From assembly GCA_028695415.1 (NCBI GenBank), contig JAQVIY010000003.1, positions 47,132 to 111,131 of the forward strand: a stretch of DNA of 64,000 nucleotides, given 5' to 3'. Positions 4,793 through 46,281 of the stretch are shown here, piece after piece. This stretch comes from Minisyncoccota bacterium (GTDB lineage: Bacteria; Patescibacteriota; Minisyncoccia; Phycocordibacterales; Phycocordibacteraceae). The notes beneath the pieces were generated by a model that was not told where the DNA came from, did no database searches, and saw nothing but the letters and a program-made list of their open reading frames with translations. Made by a program: the position numbers and the translations under genes. Position 1 is the first letter of the stretch. The number at the start of each line of letters is the position of its first letter.

Positions 4793-5332
4793 ATGAACAT
4801 ACACCCATTTTTTGTGCATTTCCCGATAGCACTGCTTGCGGTGTATTCGCTTCTTGAGATTGGCACCTATGTTTCCCCGGCGCTTCGCCGTCAGCCATGG
4901 ATGTTCCCCGTAAAGGCGTTTCTGCTTTTCGTCGGCGCCTTCGCTGCGTTCGCCGCCTTAGTGACTGGCGGTATAGCGGGAGATCTCATAGAGGGGACAA
5001 GCGCCCGTGCGTACATACTAGAGGTGCACGCATCGTTTGCGGGAGTAACGACGCTCCTCTACATTGTCCTCGCGGCGGCGTATCTCACATGCATAGGCGA
5101 CACGCTGGGGTGGGGGAACCGCATCGCCGGATTGAACAATCCCTTCATGCGCATCTGGAGCGTCAAGAAGTTTCTCGCGCATCTCGTGCTCGACACCTGG
5201 GTCTTGCCTGTACTTGCGTTCCTCGCCCTCGTCGGCATGATTATCACTGGTGTCTTGGGTGCGGCGATAGTCTACGGTCCAGGCATCGACCCGTTCGTTT
5301 CATTCACCTACCACCTCTTCTGGGCGCAGTAA
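4793..5332 (+). CDS. hypothetical polytopic membrane protein (DUF2231-like N-terminal HFPIAL motif)
   Basis: 179 aa with 4-5 predicted TM helices. Starts MNIHPFFVHFPIALL. Confidence 0.4.
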   Translation: MNIHPFFVHFPIALLAVYSLLEIGTYVSPALRRQPWMFPVKAFLLFVGAFAAFAALVTGGIAGDLIEGTSARAYILEVHASFAGVTTLLYIVLAAAYLTCIGDTLGWGNRIAGLNNPFMRIWSVKKFLAHLVLDTWVLPVLAFLALVGMIITGVLGAAIVYGPGIDPFVSFTYHLFWAQ

Positions 5333-5388
5333 GTAGTTGAATAAAAGCCGGTTTTCAGCTACTCTCCCTGTATCGCGTGTTCGCAATT

Positions 5389-5459
5389 TGCGGGATCGTC
5401 TAATGGTAGGACGCGACCCTCTGGAGGTCGTTATCTTGGTTCGAATCCAGGTCCCGCAG
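5389..5459 (+). tRNA. tRNA-Gln (anticodon CUG)
   Basis: Cloverleaf read by hand. Acceptor TGCGGGA/TCCCGCA with the U1-A72 pair typical of bacterial tRNA-Gln. Anticodon loop CTCTGGA, T-arm CTTGG-TTCGAAT-CCAGG, no encoded CCA. Confidence 0.8.
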
Positions 5460-5704
5460 CAACATTGAATTCGAGGCATTTTTAGGGGTGTTTGCGAGTA
5501 TGTGATACGGACTTTTGTATTGTATCTTCGCCATTTCTCCGTTCTTGATAGGAGTCTGAGTTCGTCAAGAGAAAAGGTGCCCGACACTGTTTCTCCAGCT
5601 TGATTTGCCTAAATCAACTTATCAACACTTTTGTAAAAATATTGCATTTTCCAATAGTATAGTATACAATACTAACGCATTCGTAATGAGTAATAGTAAA
5701 AGAT

Positions 5705-6970
5705 ATGCATATTTCACTTGTTGAATTTTCCGTTGAAAACTACAAGGTTTTCAAAGAACGGGCTGTTTTTTCTATGCTCGCTCGGAAAAACGATAAACAT
5801 ACGTTTGAGAGTAACGGCGAAAACCTGCTTAAAACATCCCTAATTTATGGGCCAAATGCGTCTGGAAAGACGTCTCTTTTGGATGCATTCAGCCTTATAA
5901 AGGCAGGTATTATTGTATCGGCAAATCTATCCACTAACCCCAAAGATCGTTTAGGAATTCCCTATTTTCCGTTTTTAGGGTTAAAAAACACCCAAACAGA
6001 ACCATCTAGTTTTGAAGTTGTATTTTCGACAAAAGGATCTTATAGCGGAGTTTACCGCTATGGTTTCTCGATTCTGCCTGATCGAATTACTAAGGAACAA
6101 ATGAGTGTTGTGCTTGCAAATGGGAAAGAGGAGATCCTTTTCTCCCGCACAGAACAAAAGATAGCGGTCTCTGGAAATGTGTTTGCTAGTGTTAAAGATC
6201 TTACGGAAACTACACGCAAAGAAGCACTCTTCCTCTCCACGGCAGCGCAAATTAACAACAAGTTTGCCCTAGGAATTGTTGGTGCATTTCGCGATATCAA
6301 TATAATCTCTGGAGTTCGTGGTCAGTATGAAGAGTTCACGATTAGGAAATTTAAAGAAGATCCTGAATACAAGACGCGAATCCTAGAGTATCTAAAAACT
6401 GCCGATTTTTGCATCTTTGATGGTCTAACGGAAGAAATTGATGTGCCGGCACTAGATGAAATAAAAGACGATGCTGATAGTTTCTCTGCAAGAAAACGAA
6501 TGGAGAAAGGAAACGTATTAATCTTCAAGCATCCTGTATACGGCGAAGATAAGAAAAAGATTGATGACTTTAAACTTCTCTTAGAGGACGAGTCGACAGG
6601 TACTCAAAAGTTTCTTTCTGTCCTTGGTCCAATTATTGACACCCTTATTGAAGGGAAAGTTTTGTTCATTGATGAATTCGATAATAGTCTTCATCCATTT
6701 CTGACAAAACTTACTATTGATCTCTTTGAGTCTAGTGAAATTAATAAGAAAGATGCTCAACTCATTGTAACAACGCATGATGTGAGTCTCTTGTCTTACA
6801 AAGATGACTTCATAAAAGATCAATTTTGGTTTACCGAAAAAGATGAACTTGGTGCAGCCAAACTTTTCTCTCTTGCGGAATTCAAACTAAGAAATGACAC
6901 GGAATTTTCGAAAAAGTACCTAGAGGGTCGCTTTGGGGCTCTGCCGTTTGTTATTCCGTTGGAAAAATAG
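5705..6970 (+). CDS. AAA/ABC-type ATPase of the AAA_21/AAA_15 class (AbiLi/RloA-like abortive-infection ATPase)
   Basis: 421 aa. Walker A GPNASGKTS near the N-terminus. C-terminal LFIDEFDNSLHP Walker B plus TTHD motif. AT-rich gene within about 250 nt of a tRNA 3' end. The next gene is RloB-like. Confidence 0.75.
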   Translation: MHISLVEFSVENYKVFKERAVFSMLARKNDKHTFESNGENLLKTSLIYGPNASGKTSLLDAFSLIKAGIIVSANLSTNPKDRLGIPYFPFLGLKNTQTEPSSFEVVFSTKGSYSGVYRYGFSILPDRITKEQMSVVLANGKEEILFSRTEQKIAVSGNVFASVKDLTETTRKEALFLSTAAQINNKFALGIVGAFRDINIISGVRGQYEEFTIRKFKEDPEYKTRILEYLKTADFCIFDGLTEEIDVPALDEIKDDADSFSARKRMEKGNVLIFKHPVYGEDKKKIDDFKLLLEDESTGTQKFLSVLGPIIDTLIEGKVLFIDEFDNSLHPFLTKLTIDLFESSEINKKDAQLIVTTHDVSLLSYKDDFIKDQFWFTEKDELGAAKLFSLAEFKLRNDTEFSKKYLEGRFGALPFVIPLEK

Positions 6971-6975
6971 CACAC

Positions 6976-7599
6976 ATGTCTTCAAGATTCACCAGGAAAC
7001 AAGATAACCGAAAACCACGCAAAGTCATCTTTATCTATTCTGAAGGTACGAAGACAGAACCAAACTACTTCAATGCCATCAAAACAGAACTTCGTCTACA
7101 AGAAGTAGACATAAAAGTTCACGGATGTGCTGATCATACCCTGCCTCTTGTAAGGTGGGTTATAGACAGAAAAACAGAAGCAGGAAATTCAGATGAGGGA
7201 ACCGAGTGGTGGGTGGTATTTGATAAAGATGCCCACGATGGTTTTGACGACGCAATAAAGCTTGCAAGGGAGAATGGCATCGATACGGCCTATTCTAACG
7301 AATGTTTTGAATTATGGTTCATACTGCATTTTGATTTCCTAAATACTGCTATTGGTCGTGAGAACTACTATTCAAAACTTACTAAGTTACTCGGGACAAA
7401 ATACGAAAAGTGCACTTCAAATATCTATGAACTTATAAAAGATAATGAGGCCACAGCTATACGTAATGCCAAAAAATTAGAAGAACAACATGATACCAGT
7501 GGTACGAAGTCCTCTCAAAAGAGAGATCCTTCGACAACCGTGTATATGTTGGTAGAAAAACTGAGGGAACTTAAAATATCGCGAGATATTGATAATTAG
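6976..7599 (+). CDS. RloB-like protein (AbiLii / TOPRIM-related partner of the upstream ATPase)
   Basis: 207 aa. The N-terminal KVIFIYSEGTKTEPNYF motif is characteristic of RloB-family proteins. Separated from the ATPase stop by a 5-nt spacer. Confidence 0.7.
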   Translation: MSSRFTRKQDNRKPRKVIFIYSEGTKTEPNYFNAIKTELRLQEVDIKVHGCADHTLPLVRWVIDRKTEAGNSDEGTEWWVVFDKDAHDGFDDAIKLARENGIDTAYSNECFELWFILHFDFLNTAIGRENYYSKLTKLLGTKYEKCTSNIYELIKDNEATAIRNAKKLEEQHDTSGTKSSQKRDPSTTVYMLVEKLRELKISRDIDN

Positions 7600-7620
7600 T
7601 AAGTAGAGGCTTAAGGGGGT

Positions 7621-7646
7621 TCCACGTCGAACCAGACCCGCAGCCG
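7621..7646. repeat. degenerate copy of the tRNA-Gln 3' end (possible attR remnant of the islet)
   Basis: TCGAACCAGACCCGCAGCC versus tRNA 3' TCGAATCCAGGTCCCGCAGCA, about 17/21 identical with two small gaps. Confidence 0.3.
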
Positions 7647-7739
7647 ACGAACGAAGATGAGGAGGTGCTGAGGCAGTTGAGGAATGGCGATGACGAAATA
7701 CTGAACTCAGCGGAGCGAAGTGCGTTAGAATTGCACAGT

Positions 7740-7982
7740 ATGTATTTTGTATACATTCTCGAATGCAAGGATGGGTCGTTATATACGGGCATAACGACAA
7801 ATGTTGAACGACGCTTTGCAGAGCATAAAAATAGAATTGGCGGACACTATACCCGCTCAAAGCAAGCCGTGCGTGTCGTATACACCGAGCAATACCCCAA
7901 CAGGTCGTTAGCATCAAAAAGGGAAAGCGAGATAAAAAGTTGGCGGCGAGACAAAAAGATGAATCTGATAGAATCTAAATAA
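7740..7982 (+). CDS. GIY-YIG nuclease family protein (small UPF0213/YhbQ-like)
   Basis: MYFVYILECKDGSLYTGITTNVERRFAEH matches the GIY-YIG core. About 80 aa. The listed ORF start at 7665 is probably an upstream extension. Confidence 0.7.
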   Translation: MYFVYILECKDGSLYTGITTNVERRFAEHKNRIGGHYTRSKQAVRVVYTEQYPNRSLASKRESEIKSWRRDKKMNLIESK

Positions 7983-8151
7983 TGAAACTTCTGAAAGAAG
8001 TTAGACTAATCGAGGTCAAGCGGACATTCGTGATATCCGATCAGATTGCCCATGTGCACAATGGCAAAAACTCGGGAATAATCGTAAGTTTATAAAAGAT
8101 CTTTCTGAAAAAGAATTTGATAAAAAGCTGTCAGATACGAAGAAAAGAATC

Positions 8152-8610
8152 TTGAAACTCAAAGAAAAAGAGTTAGACAAATTAGTTTCTCCCGAGTGGC
8201 CGAAAAGGCTCAGAGTGTACACGGGGAGCAAGTGGTTTTTAGCGCACGTTAGTCCTAAAGAAGTCGGTGTGTGGACGAGAGCGGGAGGCTTACCATTGCG
8301 GTGGACAAATAAGAGTCTTGCTGAAACTGCAGGTAAAGTAGCACGAGGGCTTGAAAGGAATTCAACGTCGATTAAACGGAGACCGAAACATGCAATACCG
8401 AATATTTTGAAAATAAAAGATCATTTGGAACAAAAAGAAAGGTACTTGTATCCTATCGTTTTTAAGACTGATACGGGGACAATGGGCAGAAAGAGATTGA
8501 AGAGAAAAATGGCTGGAGATATCGATGACGGCAATATGAGGTCTATTGCACTGGCAATGAACGGAAGAAACCCGATTACTGTGTATTTCGGTATTCCGTT
8601 TGAATCTTAG
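8152..8610 (+). CDS. hypothetical basic protein (TTG start; possibly non-coding)
   Basis: K/R-rich 152-aa ORF in an AT-rich stretch. No recognisable motifs. Confidence 0.2.
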   Translation: MKLKEKELDKLVSPEWPKRLRVYTGSKWFLAHVSPKEVGVWTRAGGLPLRWTNKSLAETAGKVARGLERNSTSIKRRPKHAIPNILKIKDHLEQKERYLYPIVFKTDTGTMGRKRLKRKMAGDIDDGNMRSIALAMNGRNPITVYFGIPFES

Positions 8611-8647
8611 GTTCTGCGAAGGTGAATGTGGGTGGTATAGTTTCTTT

Positions 8648-9211
8648 ATGAAAACATCATTATTGGTTGTCATCGTTCTCGTCGTGCTTGGTGCGGGATA
8701 TTACCTTTCTACATCGGGCGGAGCGAAGCCTGCGGCGACAGAGTATAAGAACGCGACCTATGTCATTGAGGGCGAGCCAGTGACGCTTATAAACGGCAGG
8801 GCGGAGACGCCCGCGGCACCCGGTTCAGCATCGAAAGTGGTGACGCAATATTTCGGTAATGAATTGAAAACCGATCTCAATGGCGATGGACGGGAAGATG
8901 TCGCGTTTATCCTCACGCAGGATCGCGGTGGCTCCGGCACGTTCTACTACGCCGTCGCGGCGTTGAACACGACGAAGGGATGGATTGGTTCCGACGGATA
9001 TTTGCTTGGTGACCGCGTCGCGCCGCAGGCGACGACCATCAGCCCGAACCCTAAGCAGAAACAGGTCGTCGTGTTCAACTACGCAGATCGCGCACCCAAT
9101 GAACCGATGACCGCTCAACCTTCTGTCGGCAAGAGTGCGTACCTCAAACTCAATCCGGAGGCGATGCAGTGGGGAATCGTGATACCTAATTTTGAGGGCG
9201 AATCGCGCTAA
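8648..9211 (+). CDS. hypothetical secreted/membrane-anchored protein
   Basis: Starts MKTSLLVVIVLVVLGAGYY (signal anchor). GC-rich coding. First of three consecutive exported proteins. Confidence 0.5.
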   Translation: MKTSLLVVIVLVVLGAGYYLSTSGGAKPAATEYKNATYVIEGEPVTLINGRAETPAAPGSASKVVTQYFGNELKTDLNGDGREDVAFILTQDRGGSGTFYYAVAALNTTKGWIGSDGYLLGDRVAPQATTISPNPKQKQVVVFNYADRAPNEPMTAQPSVGKSAYLKLNPEAMQWGIVIPNFEGESR

Positions 9212-9214
9212 AAC

Positions 9215-9883
9215 ATGAAAACTTCAGCTGCGATCTGGTCGGCAATCGCCGTCGTTCTCGTTGCTGGTGGAGCGTGGTATGTGTTCAACCATCCTGTATC
9301 GGTGCAGACATCAGGCGGGCTAAACATCGCGTGGAATCAGTCAGGCACCTCTACGTCTGCACCTGCCTCTTCATCGGCGCAAGCGAGCCTCACGCGGCCA
9401 TACTCCAACACCCCGATGAAAGTCTTGCTGCAACTGCCGGATGATTACACGATTGATGAATCATATCGCTATCAAGAGCTCGGTCCCGGGAAGGATATTT
9501 TAGGTGCCAATTTCATCATTCCCGCGGCTGTAGCAGACGGCACTAATCTCGGCACTGATTCGAGCCTGAGTATCGAACAACTTCCGAAGCTCAAGGAGTG
9601 TACGGCGGCGCCCTTTTTGTGGCAGGACGGAGTAGCGGTACGCACGATTGTCGAAGGCAGCACGACCTATTCGGTCGCGGCGGCGACGGGCGCCGCCGCG
9701 GGCAGCCGGTATGAAGAGACCGTGTATGCGCTCCCCGGTACGAACCCGTGTATCGCGGTGCGCTATTTCATCCACTACGGTGTCATCGAGAATTATCCGG
9801 CAGGCGCCGTGCGTGAATTCGATCGGGCAGCGCTCCTCGCTACCTTCGACGCGATACGGCACTCACTGAAGGTGGTGCAATAA
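9215..9883 (+). CDS. hypothetical secreted/membrane-anchored protein
   Basis: N-terminal MKTSAAIWSAIAVVLVAGGAWYV hydrophobic anchor. 222 aa. Confidence 0.5.
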   Translation: MKTSAAIWSAIAVVLVAGGAWYVFNHPVSVQTSGGLNIAWNQSGTSTSAPASSSAQASLTRPYSNTPMKVLLQLPDDYTIDESYRYQELGPGKDILGANFIIPAAVADGTNLGTDSSLSIEQLPKLKECTAAPFLWQDGVAVRTIVEGSTTYSVAAATGAAAGSRYEETVYALPGTNPCIAVRYFIHYGVIENYPAGAVREFDRAALLATFDAIRHSLKVVQ

Positions 9884-9937: not shown

Positions 9938-12900
9938 ATGGTGATGATAATGCGCGTACGACTCGCTGCGTTCTTTATTTTTATCGCTCCATTTGTGTTT
10001 GGCGCGCCGGCGTATGCGGCAATGATTGATTCACAGCCAGACGACAGCGCACAAGCCACGAGACCTCCAATCGTATATGTTTCTTATGGAGGACCATTCG
10101 TACCGGAGTATAATTATCACGCAGTGGGGTATATCCCGCACACTAATTTTAATCTCGCGGGGGTGCGCTTTCGCGTGAATGCGAGCGGTGGAGGAGATCA
10201 TCTGTGTCCTGTTGGTGATGTCTATAGGTATTCCGGGACTTCGACCCCAATATCTTGGAATTACGGCCCATCTTGGGGGTTCCTCATTGGCAGTATTGTC
10301 ATCGCCACCACCACTCCCGACATACACGGGAATTGCGACTATACGACTCGTGATAATTATGGGCGATCACTGCCGCTCCCTCTGTCCACCGGGAATTATT
10401 ACGTTTTCCTCATGTCTACGGGCGGGAATTTAGCAAACTGGGTCTCTATGAGCGGGAAGCCCCTCTCTTCTTCTACACCGCAAAATTTCTTTGGATATCG
10501 GCCCGCGACCTCCAATCCCTATGTATGGGGAACGCTCGGTCTCGAGGCTGCCTACTTTGAGTTTTTCGATACCGCTCCGCCCCTGACGTACTCCTCACCG
10601 ACTATCACGCTCTTAGGCTCTGCGACGACGACCGTCGAGTTCGGTTCGACATTCACCGACCCCGGGGCTACGGCACAGGACGCTACGGATGGAGATATCA
10701 CGAGCGCGATACAAACTACCGGTTCGGTAAACACAGGTATTATGGGTACCACCACGCTTACATACGCGGTTACCAATTCAGGGGGGCTCTCCGCGACGAC
10801 GACGCGAGCGGTCATCGTCGCCTGTACGCACGATTGCTACTCTAATGTGCTTTTCCTCCCCGGCATCGAGGGGAGCCGGCTCTATCGGCCAGATTATTCC
10901 GGCGGTACTGACAAGTTGTGGGAGCCAAACATAGACAGCGATGTAAAAGACTTGTATCTGAATCCGGATGGCACGAGTACGCGGCTTGATATCTATACGA
11001 AAGAAAGGGATGTTCTGGACGAGTTGCCGGACGGGGAGAACATCTACAAATCGTTCATCGGAGAAATGGATAGTTTGAAGACGAGTGGTGCGATCGCCGA
11101 CTGGGAACCTATTGCCTATGATTGGCGACTTTCGCTCGACGACATCCTCTCCTATGGTAATGAGGTGCAAGGCAGGATTTATTATTCGGGAGATCTCCGA
11201 GCTACATCGACACCCTACATCACGCAAGAACTCAGACATCTTGCCGCTACATCGAAGACGGGAAAGGTGAGTATCGTCGCGCATTCTAACGGGGGCCTTC
11301 TCGCGAAGCGTCTGACAGAAGTTCTCGGCCCCGCAGAGGCAGCGAGACTTATCGATAAGATTATTTTCGTCGCCGTACCGCAGGCAGGGACTCCTGCCGC
11401 GATCGCGGCAGGCCTCCATGGCTATGACCAGGAGAATGTGTTCGGGCTTATTACCTCGAAGTCAACCGCGCGTACCCTAGCGAATGCCGCGCCGATGGAA
11501 TATCAGCTCTTACCCTCGGCGAGCTACTTCACCTATGTTGATGATCCGGTAGTCACATTCGACGAGTCTCTCACGGATTGGATAGCGCAGTACGGCAGCA
11601 CTGTCCATTCACAGGATCGTTTGCATCAATTCCTTACCGACACCCTTGGAAGAGTAGATCCCGAGACAGGCGATATACAGCAGCCGATACAATTTAGCGA
11701 CACACTCCTCTCTAATGCCGAAGCGCTTCACACCAGTCTCGACGCCTGGGCACCCCCGACCGGCGTGCCGCTTATACAAATTGCCGGATGGGGAGTGCCG
11801 AAAACGGTTGAGGGGATAACGTATAAGAAAAAAGACGCAGGTGTGACGCCGGAAATGAACTTCACCACTGATGGTGACGGCACCGTCGTCACCCCAAGCG
11901 CATTATGGACAAGCACTACTGGCGCGTCGAATTATTGGGTAGACTTGAAACGATACAGTAATGATCATTGGCTAACAACTCTTGGTGGCCTCCATTCGTT
12001 CGATCATGGGAAAATACTAGAAACCGATCCTGTCTTGGATTTTCTTTCCGACCAAATCACTCATACCGCCAAGTCAATTTCTGATTACGGCTATCTCTCT
12101 ACTGAGGCCCCAGCAGACTCGAATAAGCGTCTTCGCTTCGCGCTCCACTCGCCGCTCACTCTGAATCTCTATGATTCAGAGGGTCGCCATACCGGCATCT
12201 CGACCAGCACAGGGCAGGTCGAGACCCAAATTCCCGGCACCTACTACACAGAGTTTGGCGATGTGAAATACTTGTTCTCAGACGCATCTTCAGGCGCGAG
12301 CGTCATCATGAACGGCTATGATACAGGGATGTTCACGCTTGATGTCGATGAATATAGCGGTGACACCCTCACGACGAGTACGACATTTAAAGATGTCCCG
12401 ACTACAGCAAACACGGTTGCATCTCTTAGCGTACAATCTGACAGTTCAACTCTCTCGTCGATGGTGGTAGATGAGAATGGCGACGGGAGGAATGTCTCCA
12501 CGATCGTCCCGAAAATAGGGGAGACCGTTACCTATACTGCGCCGCGTCGCGGCCACACGACGCTTGTTAGAGCGGCTAACACAGATGTCGCTTCAGAAGA
12601 AGCTCCAGTCGCCGCCGTAGCGCAGGTGGCTCCTCTTGTGCCAAGTCCCAGTACAGAATCCGCAGTGGAAAATAGAGAAGTGGCGACTACCACTCTCGTG
12701 TTCGCACCGCCTCCCCGGGAGGTAACGGCTCCTGCAGTAATCGCAGAGACTAAGAAAAAGTCTGTTGCCGCGCCTCGAACGGCGACAGCTCCCAAGCAGG
12801 AGGTACATCTTGGCGTGTCGCAAACCGCGTCGGTGTATGAAGCTTCTCAACAGTCGGTACTGAAAAAGTTGAGCGAAGCGATCTATAATAAGCTTTATGG

Positions 12901-12940
12901 CTTCTGGTTCACTCTTAAATCAATCATTGGTCTTTTATGA
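9938..12940 (+). CDS. large secreted multidomain protein with alpha/beta-hydrolase (lipase/esterase-like) domain and Ig-like domain
   Basis: 1000 aa. Signal peptide ending in the AYA cleavage motif. Nucleophile elbow VAHSNGG (GHSxG type). A TDGDITSAIQTTGS bacterial Ig-like segment. C-terminal Pro/Ala/Thr-rich linker followed by a hydrophobic tail. Confidence 0.6.
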   Translation: MVMIMRVRLAAFFIFIAPFVFGAPAYAAMIDSQPDDSAQATRPPIVYVSYGGPFVPEYNYHAVGYIPHTNFNLAGVRFRVNASGGGDHLCPVGDVYRYSGTSTPISWNYGPSWGFLIGSIVIATTTPDIHGNCDYTTRDNYGRSLPLPLSTGNYYVFLMSTGGNLANWVSMSGKPLSSSTPQNFFGYRPATSNPYVWGTLGLEAAYFEFFDTAPPLTYSSPTITLLGSATTTVEFGSTFTDPGATAQDATDGDITSAIQTTGSVNTGIMGTTTLTYAVTNSGGLSATTTRAVIVACTHDCYSNVLFLPGIEGSRLYRPDYSGGTDKLWEPNIDSDVKDLYLNPDGTSTRLDIYTKERDVLDELPDGENIYKSFIGEMDSLKTSGAIADWEPIAYDWRLSLDDILSYGNEVQGRIYYSGDLRATSTPYITQELRHLAATSKTGKVSIVAHSNGGLLAKRLTEVLGPAEAARLIDKIIFVAVPQAGTPAAIAAGLHGYDQENVFGLITSKSTARTLANAAPMEYQLLPSASYFTYVDDPVVTFDESLTDWIAQYGSTVHSQDRLHQFLTDTLGRVDPETGDIQQPIQFSDTLLSNAEALHTSLDAWAPPTGVPLIQIAGWGVPKTVEGITYKKKDAGVTPEMNFTTDGDGTVVTPSALWTSTTGASNYWVDLKRYSNDHWLTTLGGLHSFDHGKILETDPVLDFLSDQITHTAKSISDYGYLSTEAPADSNKRLRFALHSPLTLNLYDSEGRHTGISTSTGQVETQIPGTYYTEFGDVKYLFSDASSGASVIMNGYDTGMFTLDVDEYSGDTLTTSTTFKDVPTTANTVASLSVQSDSSTLSSMVVDENGDGRNVSTIVPKIGETVTYTAPRRGHTTLVRAANTDVASEEAPVAAVAQVAPLVPSPSTESAVENREVATTTLVFAPPPREVTAPAVIAETKKKSVAAPRTATAPKQEVHLGVSQTASVYEASQQSVLKKLSEAIYNKLYGFWFTLKSIIGLL

Positions 12941-13371
12941 TTACTAGAAAAACATTACTAATCGTTTCGGGTTTATTAAGTATTTTGCTTCTAGTCTGGG
13001 ATTATATTGGTAATTACCACATATGTGATTTTTTCATAAACGGAGGAGCAATTAGTAATTGTCCTTTTGTACTTACTGATATTGGGATAAATCTCTTTCC
13101 CATAATCCCCCTATTTCTTCTCTCTCTTATCACCTACGGCATGCGTGAGGACGTGTATCGAACCTGGGCTCGCTTCGCGATAGGGTGGATACCGGTCTCA
13201 ATGGTTCTTATATTCCTCTCTCCCGAATACGCGACTAGCTTCGGCATCGCTCTGTATCCCATTACTAAAGGCACGGTCGCATTTGCCTCCTCGCTCTTCT
13301 TCGTCATAATTTCCCTCATCCTCATCTTTTGGAGATATTCCATCTCTCGTCGCAAGATTCGCCAAGGGTAG
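12937..13371 (+). CDS. hypothetical small membrane protein (ATGA overlap with upstream gene)
   Basis: 144 aa. Four hydrophobic helices. AT-rich codon usage. Confidence 0.4.
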   Translation: MITRKTLLIVSGLLSILLLVWDYIGNYHICDFFINGGAISNCPFVLTDIGINLFPIIPLFLLSLITYGMREDVYRTWARFAIGWIPVSMVLIFLSPEYATSFGIALYPITKGTVAFASSLFFVIISLILIFWRYSISRRKIRQG

Positions 13372-13397
13372 TCCTTGGCAGAAAGGTGTGAAATGAA

Positions 13398-13428
13398 GGG
13401 CTGCGATTCATGAAGCGAATCGCAGCCC
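13398..13428. terminator. bidirectional rho-independent terminator
   Basis: Perfect 12-bp stem GGGCTGCGATTC/GAATCGCAGCCC with a 7-nt loop. Lies between convergent genes. Confidence 0.6.
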
Positions 13429-13447
13429 GTTTGCATATCGTCAGTAT

Positions 13448-13861
13448 TCACACCTTCGCCCCTCTGCTGAAGCAGGGCAGCCCCTCCTTATAGTCCTCCA
13501 GATTCATCTTGAGAAATACACGGTCTCCCCACATATCTCTCGATATGAAAACCGTGGGAACTTCCACCTTATCGTCTATTGAGACGTCGATAAGCTCGAC
13601 CCGGGTGAAGATGAAAAGGGGTGCGGTAGGCAGGCCAGTCGGCGGCCCCTTCGCGTAACTGAACGCGACAATTTTCTCTCTCGCGGTTTCCATCTTGGCG
13701 AAGTATTCGCCACACATCTCCCATTCCTGCTTCCGAAGCGTCTTCCACAGGTCGGCGGCGATGGCGATGATCGGGTGTTCGAAGTCTTCGGTACTTCCTG
13801 CAATGCCCGATGTGATACAGAAGAGCAACACACCGATACCGGCTATCTTCCAGAACTTCAT
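13448..13861 (-). CDS. hypothetical secreted protein
   Basis: Signal peptide MKFWKIAGIGVLLFCITSGIAGS followed by a soluble domain. 137 aa. Confidence 0.45.
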   Translation of the reverse strand: MKFWKIAGIGVLLFCITSGIAGSTEDFEHPIIAIAADLWKTLRKQEWEMCGEYFAKMETAREKIVAFSYAKGPPTGLPTAPLFIFTRVELIDVSIDDKVEVPTVFISRDMWGDRVFLKMNLEDYKEGLPCFSRGAKV

Positions 13862-13991
13862 AATCCTTCTCCCTAAGATTGGTTTATCAAGGATATCCTC
13901 GCGTACTGTATTCCTCGCTAGTTCTTTGTCAAACGACCTATGTATCGGTGCCTAATCAGTATCGACGAGCCTTCCGTGGTACACTTAAATC

Positions 13992-14879
13992 ATGAATCGG
14001 GTCATTTTTGGGGATAATTTGGAGGTTTTAAAGACGATCCCGACAGGGTCAGTAAGCCTTATCTACATTGATCCGCCTTTCAATACCGGTAAAGTGCAAT
14101 CGAGAAAACAGCTCAAGACCGCAAAGGATATCAATGGCGACAGAATTGGTTTCAAGGGTCAGACCTACCGAACCACCGTGCTTGGAGAGAAATCATATGT
14201 CGATAGCTTTAATGATTATCTTGGCTTCCTTGAACCGCGTTTGCGGGAGGCGCATCGAATACTTACCAATGACGGTAGTATCTATTTTCATATTGATTAT
14301 CGGGAAGTGCATTACTGCAAGGTCTTGCTCGATACTATCTTTGGGCGAGAGAATTTCTTGAATGAAATAATTTGGGCATACGACTATGGGGCACGAAGCA
14401 AAAATAAATGGCCGGCGAAACACGACACCATTCTCTGGTACGCGAAAGATTATAGGAATTACATCTTCAACTACGAAGATATGGATCGCATTCCATACAT
14501 GGCGCCTGGACTCGTTGGACCAGAGAAGGCCGCTCGCGGAAAGACGCCGACAGATACTTGGTGGCACACGATAGTGAGTCCAAATGGTAAAGAAAAGACC
14601 GGTTATCCGACGCAGAAACCGCTTGGCATCATCCGGCGCATCATCCGAGCATCTTCTCGAGAGGGAGATTTAATTATGGATTTTTTCGCCGGAAGCGGAA
14701 CAGCAGGCGAAGCAGCTCTCGAACTGGAGAGGAAATTTATTCTTGTCGATAATAATCCGCAAGCACTGGAGGTCATGAAGAGGCGCTTTGCGGGAAATTC
14801 AAGAGTTAAATTTGTAATATCGACAAATATTGGGAATGAATTAAAGAAAATAGCCGTGAAGACTCCAGTTCTTTTCTGA
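13992..14879 (+). CDS. DNA methyltransferase, beta-class amino-MTase (N6-adenine or N4-cytosine)
   Basis: Motif IV IYIDPPFNTG near the N-terminus. Motif I DFFAGSGTAG near the C-terminus. 295 aa. Confidence 0.85.
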   Translation: MNRVIFGDNLEVLKTIPTGSVSLIYIDPPFNTGKVQSRKQLKTAKDINGDRIGFKGQTYRTTVLGEKSYVDSFNDYLGFLEPRLREAHRILTNDGSIYFHIDYREVHYCKVLLDTIFGRENFLNEIIWAYDYGARSKNKWPAKHDTILWYAKDYRNYIFNYEDMDRIPYMAPGLVGPEKAARGKTPTDTWWHTIVSPNGKEKTGYPTQKPLGIIRRIIRASSREGDLIMDFFAGSGTAGEAALELERKFILVDNNPQALEVMKRRFAGNSRVKFVISTNIGNELKKIAVKTPVLF

Positions 14880-14885
14880 CATTTG

Positions 14886-15413
14886 TTATAAATGCCGCCT
14901 CTTTGGCGCGAGGGTTTTCTTATGAAGTTTCTCCACGCGCACTTTCGTTTCTTGATTTATTTTTTGCAGTTGTGATAAAAGATTACGCATTTCCTGTGCG
15001 ATATCAGCATTTCGATCGCCCTCCTTAATTGCGGCTTGCACCCTAGCATTAAGTTCGGAATCACTGCATTCGAATTCTTTGGGAATAGAATTTCTAGACA
15101 AATTAGCACTTTCGAATGGGATTTCAGTATGCTGACCCCTGCTTTTCTTAGTGACGAGCCGAACTATCTCGTGGGGCGGCAAAACTATCCAAGTTTGGCC
15201 ATTATATATAACGAGGGGTATGAATTTGATCGCACGAATTTGGTTTATGGTATTAGAATGGCATTCCTTAATTTCCACATATCGCAATTCTCCTTTCACG
15301 GGGACTCTCGCGTCGCCAAGTTTCGCGTTATCCGATTTCTTTGATCCTTTGACGAATAAACGAAAACGCTCTTCGGCGTTGTCTCCCTCGTGTCTTATCG
15401 CCTGCCGTGCCAT
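14886..15413 (-). CDS. candidate type II restriction endonuclease (convergent partner of the MTase)
   Basis: 175 aa. Possible PD-(D/E)xK arrangement GDARVPVKGELRYVEIK. Stop is 7 nt from the MTase stop. No other support. Confidence 0.35.
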   Translation of the reverse strand: MARQAIRHEGDNAEERFRLFVKGSKKSDNAKLGDARVPVKGELRYVEIKECHSNTINQIRAIKFIPLVIYNGQTWIVLPPHEIVRLVTKKSRGQHTEIPFESANLSRNSIPKEFECSDSELNARVQAAIKEGDRNADIAQEMRNLLSQLQKINQETKVRVEKLHKKTLAPKRRHL

Positions 15414-31042: not shown

Positions 31043-31450
31043 GGGGGTGACCGGCTTTGACGGTCTGTACTTTGAAAGACGTGCGACGCAGTGCACTCTC
31101 GCCTACCACTCTAATCTAGCGAGAAAACATACTTGCAAAGAACACTCTAGCAAGCGTGAAGTCCCCGTACTTCGGTATGAAGGACTTTGCGTTCGCCTAC
31201 GCGGCAGCCTAACGGCTCCTCGCCTATGCGACGTCTGACCTTTCCGGTTCTCCAGGGGAAGTCTCGGGCGGAATCATCTGGAGCATCGATACCCGGTCTC
31301 CCGCCCGGTGCATCTAAATAAGGGATCGGGCAGGAATGGTTTTGTCGACGTTCCTCGCATCCTGCCGTAGACTCTAACGTCGACTATGCGTCGTAGACTC
31401 GCTTTCATAGCCAGGCTCGGACTCGGGTTCGATTCCCGACATCTCCACCA
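31043..31450 (+). ncRNA. ssrA: tmRNA (ssrA)
   Basis: 5' GGGGGTGACCGGCTTTGACGG resembles the tmRNA 5' end. 3' tRNA-like domain GGGTTCGATTCCC...CATCTCCACCA with encoded CCA. Acceptor pairing GGGGGTG/CATCTCC. Internal tag-like reading frame ends ...DFAFAYAAA-TAA at 31210-31212. Downstream of smpB. Confidence 0.75.
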
Positions 31451-33917: not shown

Positions 33918-33993
33918 CCGCCCTTAGCTCAGTTGGTAGAGCACTCCGCTTATACCGGATCGGTCCTTGGTTCGAGTCCAAGAGGGCGGACCA
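33918..33993 (+). tRNA. tRNA-Ile (anticodon UAU)
   Basis: Acceptor CCGCCCT/AGGGCGG, D-arm GCTC-AGTTGGTA-GAGC, anticodon loop CTTATAC, T-arm CTTGG-TTCGAGT-CCAAG, encoded CCA. One C-U mismatch at the base of the anticodon stem. Confidence 0.7.
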
Positions 33994-45963: not shown

Positions 45964-45994
45964 AAAAAAGAGCGCCGTTGAGGCGCTTTTTTTG
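45964..45994 (+). terminator. rho-independent terminator
   Basis: AGCGCC-GTTGA-GGCGCT followed by TTTTTTT. Confidence 0.6.
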
Positions 45995-45996
45995 TC

Positions 45997-46281
45997 GGCG
46001 GAGGCGAGCACGCCTGGGAGGCGTGCGTGGGGGATTCGAAGACCTTGCGGATAATTCGCTTCTTTCTAGAAGCGAATTATCCGCAAGGTGTACGCCGAGA
46101 TTTTAAAGGAGCGGAGCGACTATAAAAATCCAAGTGCAGTTTCGAAGAAAGCTGCCTGAAGCTGTATGAGTACATACAGCTTCTTCGTTCGGCGCAAAAG
46201 AATGATCACCCCATCATTCTTTTGACCTCACTCATCGCTGTAAGTTTCGAAAAGCGTAATCGCGGTCTCTTCGCCTCCGCC
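45997..46281 (+). repeat. copy B of the structured repeat (carries an insertion of about 150 nt relative to copy A)
   Basis: Termini GGCGGAGGCGAG ... CTCTTCGCCTCCGCC are mutually complementary and resemble the tRNA-Ser acceptor/3' end. Internal blocks shared with copy A. Confidence 0.45.

Follow-up and report, generated by a model that had tools for sequence, protein, structure and literature searches.

Patescibacteria, also called candidate phyla radiation (CPR) bacteria, have very small genomes and are frequently portrayed as having few defence systems. In a 64,000-nucleotide stretch of DNA from one such organism (an uncultured Minisyncoccota bacterium; GenBank assembly GCA_028695415.1, contig JAQVIY010000003.1, positions 47,132 to 111,131; hereafter the window), an AT-rich islet directly downstream of a tRNA-Gln gene encodes an ATPase and a small RloB-like protein, and this raises the question of whether the pair is a defence module and how it came to be there. 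We think it probable that the segment from 5461 to 7644 is a horizontally acquired, self-promoted defence module of the AbiL/RloAB type, situated between tRNA-Gln(CTG) and a GIY-YIG gene in a Paceibacteria/Kaiserbacteria-like CPR bacterium, for which we propose a sensor-nuclease mechanism and an origin in an integrase-bearing element. Both proteins belong to the AbiL families, have intact catalytic motifs and are encoded by tightly coupled genes; the segment is foreign in composition, the pair is absent from relatives, and its homologues form a Patescibacteria-centred clade.

An ATPase gene coupled to a RloB-family gene

The first gene (abiLi/rloA-like; 5705-6970, plus strand) encodes a 421-amino acid (aa) ABC-type ATPase of the Rad50/SMC-like AAA_21 kind, the presumed sensor or regulator of the module. 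A prior reading of the DNA that used the letters alone (the sequence-only reading) had assigned it to AAA_21 from the motifs GPNASGKTS and LFIDEFDN, and had suggested searches with the AAA_21, AAA_15 and RloB profiles and with defence-specific profiles. Both motifs are present, and the protein scores 88.8 bits against Pfam AAA_21 (cutoff 27; 9e-25) and 46 bits against AAA_15 (8e-12), while among the PADLOC profiles AbiLi (PDLC02335; 282 bits, 1.1e-84) is the top of 73 matches. The residues invariant in 38 homologues include G49, N51, G54 and K55 of Walker A, E296, S297, G299 and T300 of the signature, D323, E324 and D326 of Walker B, and H358/D359 of the H-loop. When an AlphaFold2 (AF2) model (predicted local distance difference test score, pLDDT, 87.9) was compared with known structures using Foldseek, it matched Rad50 (3.5e-12), PtuA (3.7e-11), retron PtuA (1.6e-10) and the OLD structure 6p74 (1.1e-9). 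A single-sequence search with the ATPase against PDB sequences found nothing, and an ATPase profile matched only PtuA and the retron Ec83 ATPase. The Pfam and NCBIfam scans also gave weak RecF/SMC_N matches at the P-loop, and no NCBIfam model reached its threshold, with RecF at 21.8 bits (cutoff 172) and the MAD3 equivalog at 20 bits (cutoff 420); membership in the MADS system was rejected on the latter score.

The second gene (abiLii/rloB; 6976-7599, plus strand) begins 5 nt after the first, on the same strand, and encodes a 207-aa RloB-family protein that is presumably a TOPRIM-like nuclease effector. The feature KVIFIYSEGTKTEPNYF, by which it had been recognised as RloB/AbiLii, is present, and the assignment is upheld by a match to Pfam RloB (PF13707) of 150.7 bits (cutoff 31.5; 7.3e-44) that spans profile positions 1-195 of 195, and by a sole PADLOC match, to AbiLii (PDLC02337; 1.1e-28). 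All of the profiles suggested beforehand are therefore matched, AAA_21 and RloB far above their cutoffs. Every one of 49 aligned homologues also matches PF13707, and the family is large, comprising 11,317 clusters at 50% identity (E<=1e-3). Four residues (G24, E28, D83 and D85) do not vary among the homologues, of which at least 90% also keep E23 and E112.

In the AF2 model of the RloB protein (pLDDT 90.7) an alpha/beta domain with a parallel sheet of four strands precedes a helical part. Strand 1 (16-22) is directly followed by E23, and D83xD85 closes strand 3 (76-83). The metal ligands of TOPRIM domains sit in the same places, with a Glu after strand 1 and a DxD after strand 3, and the model has this arrangement.

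An AbiLi-type ATPase followed by an adjacent, same-strand AbiLii-type gene is the gene content by which AbiL is defined, and these Pfam and PADLOC assignments support the proposal in the sequence-only reading that the pair is a defence cassette of this kind. AbiL of the Lactococcus lactis plasmid pND861 has the same stand-alone order, an AAA_21/AAA_15 ABC ATPase and then a RloB-family protein, although that version is plasmid-borne and the one described here occupies a chromosomal islet in a CPR bacterium and belongs to a Patescibacteria-centred clade. According to Deng et al. 1999, as cited in PMC13064643, the prototype AbiL gives phage resistance, and it works without a restriction partner (PMC13064643). 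The same protein pair is found as RloA and RloB in Campylobacter jejuni, where RloB is the founding member of PF13707 and the genes are described as 'restriction-linked ORFs' of Type I restriction-modification (R-M) loci (Miller et al. 2005, as cited in PMC13064643); four of the ten CPR homologue contexts described below share that linkage, whereas the pair in the window has no Type I R-M link within the 64 kb.

PARIS has the same layout of a separate ABC ATPase and small nuclease, and the ATPase in the window matches the AriA profile of PADLOC (1.6e-27); the PARIS effector AriB, however, is a TOPRIM/DUF4435 tRNase whereas the effector here is RloB, and the 207-aa protein has no match to AriB or DUF4435 in Pfam or PADLOC. 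AbiL has been grouped with PARIS and other systems of an ABC ATPase plus TOPRIM (PMC11464382; PMC13064643), and AbiLii superposes poorly on AriB (PMC13064643). The ATPase fold is shared with PtuA of Septu and retrons and with the ATPase domain of the OLD family (P2 Old, Gabija GajA), but in OLD the ATPase and nuclease are joined in one protein and here they are separate, and the partner of PtuA is an HNH nuclease rather than RloB.

Upstream of the ATPase gene is a promoter-like block with a 5' leader (5630-5704, plus strand), composed of an A-tract (5633-5641), a -35 hexamer TTGCAT (5642-5647), a 17-nt spacer and a -10 hexamer TACAAT (5665-5670), together with a conserved GTAAAAgATATG at the ATPase start codon. 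A block with the consensus A-tract, TTGCAw, 17-nt spacer and TAtAAT is found ahead of the ATPase gene at 8 of 9 loci from CPR genomes; it is kept in every kind of context, restriction operons included. A generic sigma-70 scan upstream of the ATPase found no promoter and the block was seen only by alignment, because the -35 hexamer agrees with TTGACA at just three of six positions. The conservation suggests that the block acts as a promoter, and its retention in 8 of 9 loci, even inside restriction operons, indicates that the mobile unit is likely to be promoter, ATPase and RloB together.

Foreign composition, homologous cassettes and the islet boundaries

The tRNA-Gln(CTG) gene (5389-5460, plus strand; ARAGORN, and Rfam RF00005 with 57.5 bits) forms the left boundary of the islet and is a putative attL. 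GC content falls from 0.565-0.57 upstream of it to 0.35-0.40 directly 3' of it, as had been noted from the letters, and the segment from 5461 to 7644 has, at 0.387, the lowest GC of all 2184-nt stretches in the window (mean about 0.535, sd 0.045); the drop is real and no chance fluctuation. At third codon positions GC is 0.34 for the ATPase and RloB genes and 0.55-0.74 in native neighbour genes. Between the tRNA and the promoter-like block is a spacer (5461-5629; GC 0.41) in which we found no open reading frame (ORF) of at least 50 aa wholly inside, no Rfam match and no alignment to relatives, and an Rfam scan of 5200-8800 gave nothing besides the tRNA.

We compared this site with 80 related loci anchored on the flanking CTP synthase gene (pyrG), whose product is 77-84% identical to those of Kaiserbacteria/Paceibacteria-type metagenome-assembled genomes (MAGs), a similarity that places the host among the CPR. 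None of the 80 contains the ATPase-RloB pair, and about half have tRNA-Gln(CTG) near pyrG. In one of them (L012; the loci compared are referred to by such numbers) the tRNA-Gln is followed after 190 nt by a GIY-YIG gene on the same strand with no cassette, whereas in the window the two are 2279 nt apart and only the cassette lies between. The comparison with islet-free relatives proposed in the sequence-only reading thus yields an empty site, across species. Deviant composition, together with absence at the same site in relatives, supports a foreign origin for 5461-7644. The comparison with L012 also places the right boundary at about 7644, where GC returns to 0.52 just beyond, although a low-GC zone runs on to about 8610, past the end of the islet. 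The extent of 5389-8000 given previously was therefore right in recognising a low-GC islet and wrong in ending it at 8000, and it included, without mention, the GIY-YIG gene at 7740-7982.

Almost every homologue in the range of 51-71% identity comes from Patescibacteria, and the best plasmid and phage homologues reach 28-36% (plasmid-borne ones, 30-36%). The homologous cassettes reside in low-GC CPR genomes (0.33-0.47), and since the cassette here has a GC of about 0.386 in a host of about 0.54, a low-GC donor is indicated. Both proteins fall in PHROG families that lack a function annotation, and phage-borne versions therefore exist. NCBI already has identical entries for both proteins, named 'RloB family protein' and 'ATP-binding protein' and derived from a Candidatus Pacebacteria MAG, and the same locus is also present in a Logan assembly.

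Ten distinct contexts of homologous cassettes were examined. Four (L084, L087, L097 and L105) have the classic restriction-linked order hsdM-[ATPase-RloB]-hsdS-hsdR, two (L082 and L096) lie beside other defence genes, and three (L085, L098 and L102) stand alone among housekeeping genes. The remaining one (L099, 4577-8085) is an intact mini-element with an integrase and a tRNA, which runs from tRNA-Ala through a tyrosine integrase, RloB and the ATPase, in that order, to a perfect 47-nt repeat of the 3' part of the tRNA, a repeat to which none of 300 shuffles comes close; this element is about 3.5 kb long with a GC of 0.32-0.37 between flanks of 0.42-0.51. In the window itself, tblastn with HsdM, HsdS and HsdR queries from L084 and L087 found no counterpart.

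Two of the loci compared gave further candidates that we rejected. A 152-aa ORF of the window (described below) and a 152-aa ORF adjoining RloB in L082 proved unrelated. In L100 (4811-6608, minus strand; Paceibacteria) an AAA_15/AAA_21 ATPase of 393 aa and a 200-aa partner adjoin a backbone of pyrG, tRNA-Gln and a gene of a 209-aa family, but this ATPase shares only the P-loop region with that of the window and the partner has no RloB match, so that the pair is not AbiL. In L096 (2981-8207), a Nomurabacteria contig, the pair has an N6_N4 methyltransferase gene on one side and a SMODS/CD-NTase (CBASS-like) gene on the other, and a transposase and a T5orf172 gene are close by, so that this CPR genome contains a small cluster of defence genes.

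At the right boundary of the islet the sequence-only reading had seen a degenerate copy of the tRNA-Gln 3' end (7621-7646) as an attR remnant. There is a short match at 7627-7644 (plus strand), where TCGAACCAGACCCGCAGC aligns with TCGAATCCAGGTCCCGCAGC in the last 20 nt of the tRNA, over 18 nt; the alignment contains one mismatch and two gaps, and the final 8 nt of the match are exact to the tRNA 3' terminus. In an open 6.5-kb search the match is unremarkable, as 52 of 300 shuffles equal its score, whereas in the 141-nt junction that separates the stop of RloB from the start of GIY-YIG the score is equalled in no more than 4 of 5000 shuffles and in 9 of 902 genomic windows, counts that are indicative only because the junction zone was picked after the match was known. 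The repeat is thus suggestive of an attR remnant. The observation that no integrase is present stands, with no integrase Pfam match on the genes called in the 10 kb downstream and nothing resembling the L099 integrase found by tblastn anywhere in the window. Description of the islet as a decayed integrative element is plausible given that L099 carries a 58%-identical cassette with an integrase and a tRNA-derived att repeat, and it is unproven here given the short and degenerate repeat.

Proposed mechanism, route of entry and alternatives

By analogy with PARIS and P2 OLD, we propose that the ABC ATPase would oligomerise and keep the RloB nuclease inactive, serving as an antitoxin-like sensor. 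A phage cue, possibly an anti-restriction protein, would alter the ATPase, and RloB would then be released or activated to cut nucleic acid, most likely host tRNA, using the metal site predicted from its Glu and DxD residues; translation would halt and the infection would abort. The model draws on PMC11464382, PMC13064643 and bioRxiv 10.64898/2026.07.10.737580. In PARIS an ATPase sensor controls the tRNase AriB, which is released or activated on infection (PMC11464382, PMC12409363), and P2 OLD likewise has an ATPase sensor and a tRNase released or activated on infection (bioRxiv 10.64898/2026.07.10.737580). Because homologues so often lie within Type I R-M operons, a trigger of the anti-restriction kind would be an appealing candidate. 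As to its arrival, the cassette may have come on a small tyrosine-integrase element targeting a tRNA 3' end, like that of L099, with the integrase subsequently lost from the islet.

A number of observations weigh against this overall reading, whether as to mechanism, function or origin. The choice of tRNA rather than DNA as the RloB target is the least certain step, and a 2026 review (PMC13064643) states that whether AbiL/RloAB act like PARIS remains to be determined. The defence function, at this locus and in CPR AbiL, is a prediction from the genes. The relation of RloB to TOPRIM, which is reported on the basis of HHpred (PMC10440598), could not be confirmed independently: when the RloB model was compared with the PDB using Foldseek, only generic alpha/beta folds were returned, none of them at E<=1e-3 and none a TOPRIM, OLD or AriB structure (against BFVD it found just another RloB-like phage protein), RloB profile searches against PDB sequences gave nothing meaningful, and a weak-match Pfam scan of 49 RloB homologues gave Toprim_2 in one, at E=0.083. 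Using hhalign, RloB and P2 Old alone were related with a probability of 0.2-1.7%, and an alignment of eight OLD-family sequences (P2 Old and seven plasmid homologues) produced a single non-significant match (E=0.015, probability 2.9%). In this weak match the Glu and DxD of the two families are in register, with E23 on Old E398 and D83xD85 on D453xD455, and the G50 strand falls on 'VDGKG'. The kinship with TOPRIM, OLD and PARIS effectors claimed in the sequence-only reading is thus favoured by the literature and by motif placement, while our own profile and fold tests are not significant. Concerning origin, the genomes with an empty site are only about 80% identical in pyrG protein and include no sister strain; the att-like repeat is only 18 nt long with two gaps; a tblastn search of the window detected no remnant of an integrase like that of L099; and the orientation of the cargo is opposite to that in L099.

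The same genes could be read as a toxin-antitoxin (TA)-like addiction module, with RloB the toxin and the ATPase the antitoxin, which stabilises itself or the islet and plays no part in phage defence. NetFlax places pairs of an AAA ATPase and a TOPRIM_OLD/RloB protein in its type II TA network, and related pairs have been validated as toxin and antitoxin (PMC10440598); moreover, the cassette persists without a mobility gene and bears its own promoter-like block. The two roles are not mutually exclusive, however, since PARIS is both a TA pair and a defence system (PMC13064643), and the settings of the homologues, some within operons for Type I restriction and others next to methyltransferase or CBASS-like genes, are typical for defence. 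Given also the phage resistance attributed to the prototype AbiL (Deng et al. 1999, as cited in PMC13064643), we regard addiction in place of defence as unlikely. The pair might alternatively be an orphaned accessory of restriction, RloAB in the strict sense, which needs a Type I enzyme and is inactive or decaying here. Four of ten homologue contexts, including the close relative L105 (RloB 67% identical), have the pair between hsdM and hsdS, and the window lacks all three hsd genes, although a Type I system may be encoded elsewhere in the genome. Both ORFs, however, are intact and keep all invariant residues, even copies embedded in restriction operons retain the promoter block, so that the pair appears to be its own transcription unit, there are copies without restriction genes in L085, L098, L099 and L102, and the lactococcal system functions on its own (PMC13064643); we find this very unlikely. 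That the two proteins are housekeeping DNA-repair factors, a RecF/Rad50-like ATPase and a partner, is scarcely credible even though the ATPase fold is nearest to Rad50/SMC heads and there are weak RecF/SMC_N matches at the P-loop, because those matches are far below their cutoffs (21.8 bits against 172 for RecF), the distribution is patchy (0 of 80 relatives), the composition is foreign, and the best matches are to the defence-specific profiles AbiLi and AbiLii.

A further alternative concerns the route of entry only. Instead of integration by a tRNA-targeting enzyme, the cassette may have entered by recombination at a variable hotspot between tRNA-Gln and GIY-YIG, with the 18-mer a coincidence, a scenario that we consider quite possible, though short of an even chance. 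The tRNA-Gln(CTG) 3' flank is variable and often low-GC in relatives, where it carries unrelated cargo and no detected integrase. Defence or TA genes are found there in L017 (GmrSD_N/NsnA-like), L067 (PDC-S02 and HNH), L041 (an HTH-Panacea TA pair) and L043 (RmrA-like), L002 has a GHKL ATPase, and in many other relatives the genes there are ordinary ones (RecQ, ABC-F, peptidases). The flank is thus variable and in some cases carries defence cargo, but it is no dedicated defence island. A GIY-YIG nuclease gene is at the junction in many relatives, and the non-significance of the att-like match in the open search, as well as the lack of an integrase remnant in the window, also favour such recombination. 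Against it, the match is a roughly 0.1-1% event within the junction, with its last 8 nt exact to the tRNA terminus, and the L099 cassette does travel on an integrase element that duplicates the tRNA 3' end. A broader proposal is that the pair spreads among Patescibacteria as a self-promoted block on tyrosine-integrase tRNA elements of about 3.5 kb, from which it is captured into Type I operons or fixed without an integrase, and that the tRNA-Gln/GIY-YIG junction is a recurrent landing site for defence and TA cargo, perhaps aided by GIY-YIG; this we advance only tentatively, and as a whole it is rather doubtful.

On the preferred reading, of a horizontally acquired AbiL/RloAB-type defence module, the locus provides a complete and apparently functional AbiL-type system in a tiny-genome CPR bacterium, of a clade widely shared among Patescibacteria, and a search of the literature for Patescibacteria defence surveys mentioning AbiL found nothing specific. 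It should be useful in surveys of CPR immunity and in the choice of compact AbiL/RloAB variants for study. No new principle is involved, as the family, the architecture and the exact proteins are already publicly annotated; what is added is the Patescibacteria-centred clade with its own promoter-like block, the integrase-borne version in L099 and the versions embedded in Type I R-M operons. If the proposal of spread on integrase elements were true, the system would offer a compact model for the acquisition and exchange of immunity in genome-reduced CPR bacteria.

The right flank and other features of the window

The gene to the right of the islet (7740-7982, plus strand; 80 aa from the ATG at 7740) encodes a GIY-YIG nuclease-family protein (Pfam GIY-YIG, 3.3e-19) and constitutes the native right flank. 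It is 77-79% identical to the genes beside tRNA-Gln in L002 and L012, the closest relatives having it. The next ORF (8152-8610, plus strand) encodes 152 aa of a conserved Paceibacteria/Parcubacteria family, normally of about 209 aa, and is N-terminally short here. Among its 97 homologues the closest are 70-81% identical, and it is 77% identical to P0385 from residue 29 of P0385 onward. The homologous frame reaches upstream to about 8065 but lacks a start codon, and it meets an in-frame stop near 8002; either the gene has been truncated or its translation begins at an unusual codon. The backbone of L100 has pyrG, then tRNA-Gln, then a gene of this same 209-aa family. The possibility that the 152-aa ORF and the GIY-YIG gene are cargo of the islet was rejected, since homologues 70-81% identical are present in related genomes and the GIY-YIG gene is a habitual neighbour of tRNA-Gln.

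Across Paceibacteria a small GIY-YIG gene habitually neighbours tRNA-Gln(CTG), on either side and in either orientation. The distance between the two is at most 200 nt in L002 (13328-13716), L012 (9046-9720), L042 (11993-12402), L059 (17046-17411) and L067 (12888-13208), and 1.4-3.4 kb in the window, L025, L036, L041 and L051. In L012 (about 9548-9690 and 9290-9390, minus strand) part of the tRNA-Gln 5' end is present as a copy, TTGCCAGATCGTCTAATG, and after it comes a sequence of about 95 nt that is repeated upstream of GIY-YIG, so that a copy of the GIY-YIG 'leader' stands on each side of the tRNA. The leader in the window (7645-7739) and that of L012 share the short blocks GAGGAGGTnCTGAGGC, TACTGA and GCGAAGT.

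A second stretch of lower GC (0.40-0.49) is present in the window at 12800-15400. It contains a gene for an N6_N4 DNA methyltransferase (13992-14879; Pfam 2.7e-50) with small family-less ORFs on either side, and this could be an orphan methylase or a remnant of a Type II R-M system. Elsewhere in the window ARAGORN identified a tRNA-Ile with anticodon TAT (33918-33993) and a tRNA-Pro(GGG) (45984-46075) that is unusually long at 92 nt, possibly owing to an intron or a miscall, and there is a tmRNA gene (31043-31450) with the tag peptide AKNTLASVKSPYFGMKDFAFAYAAA.

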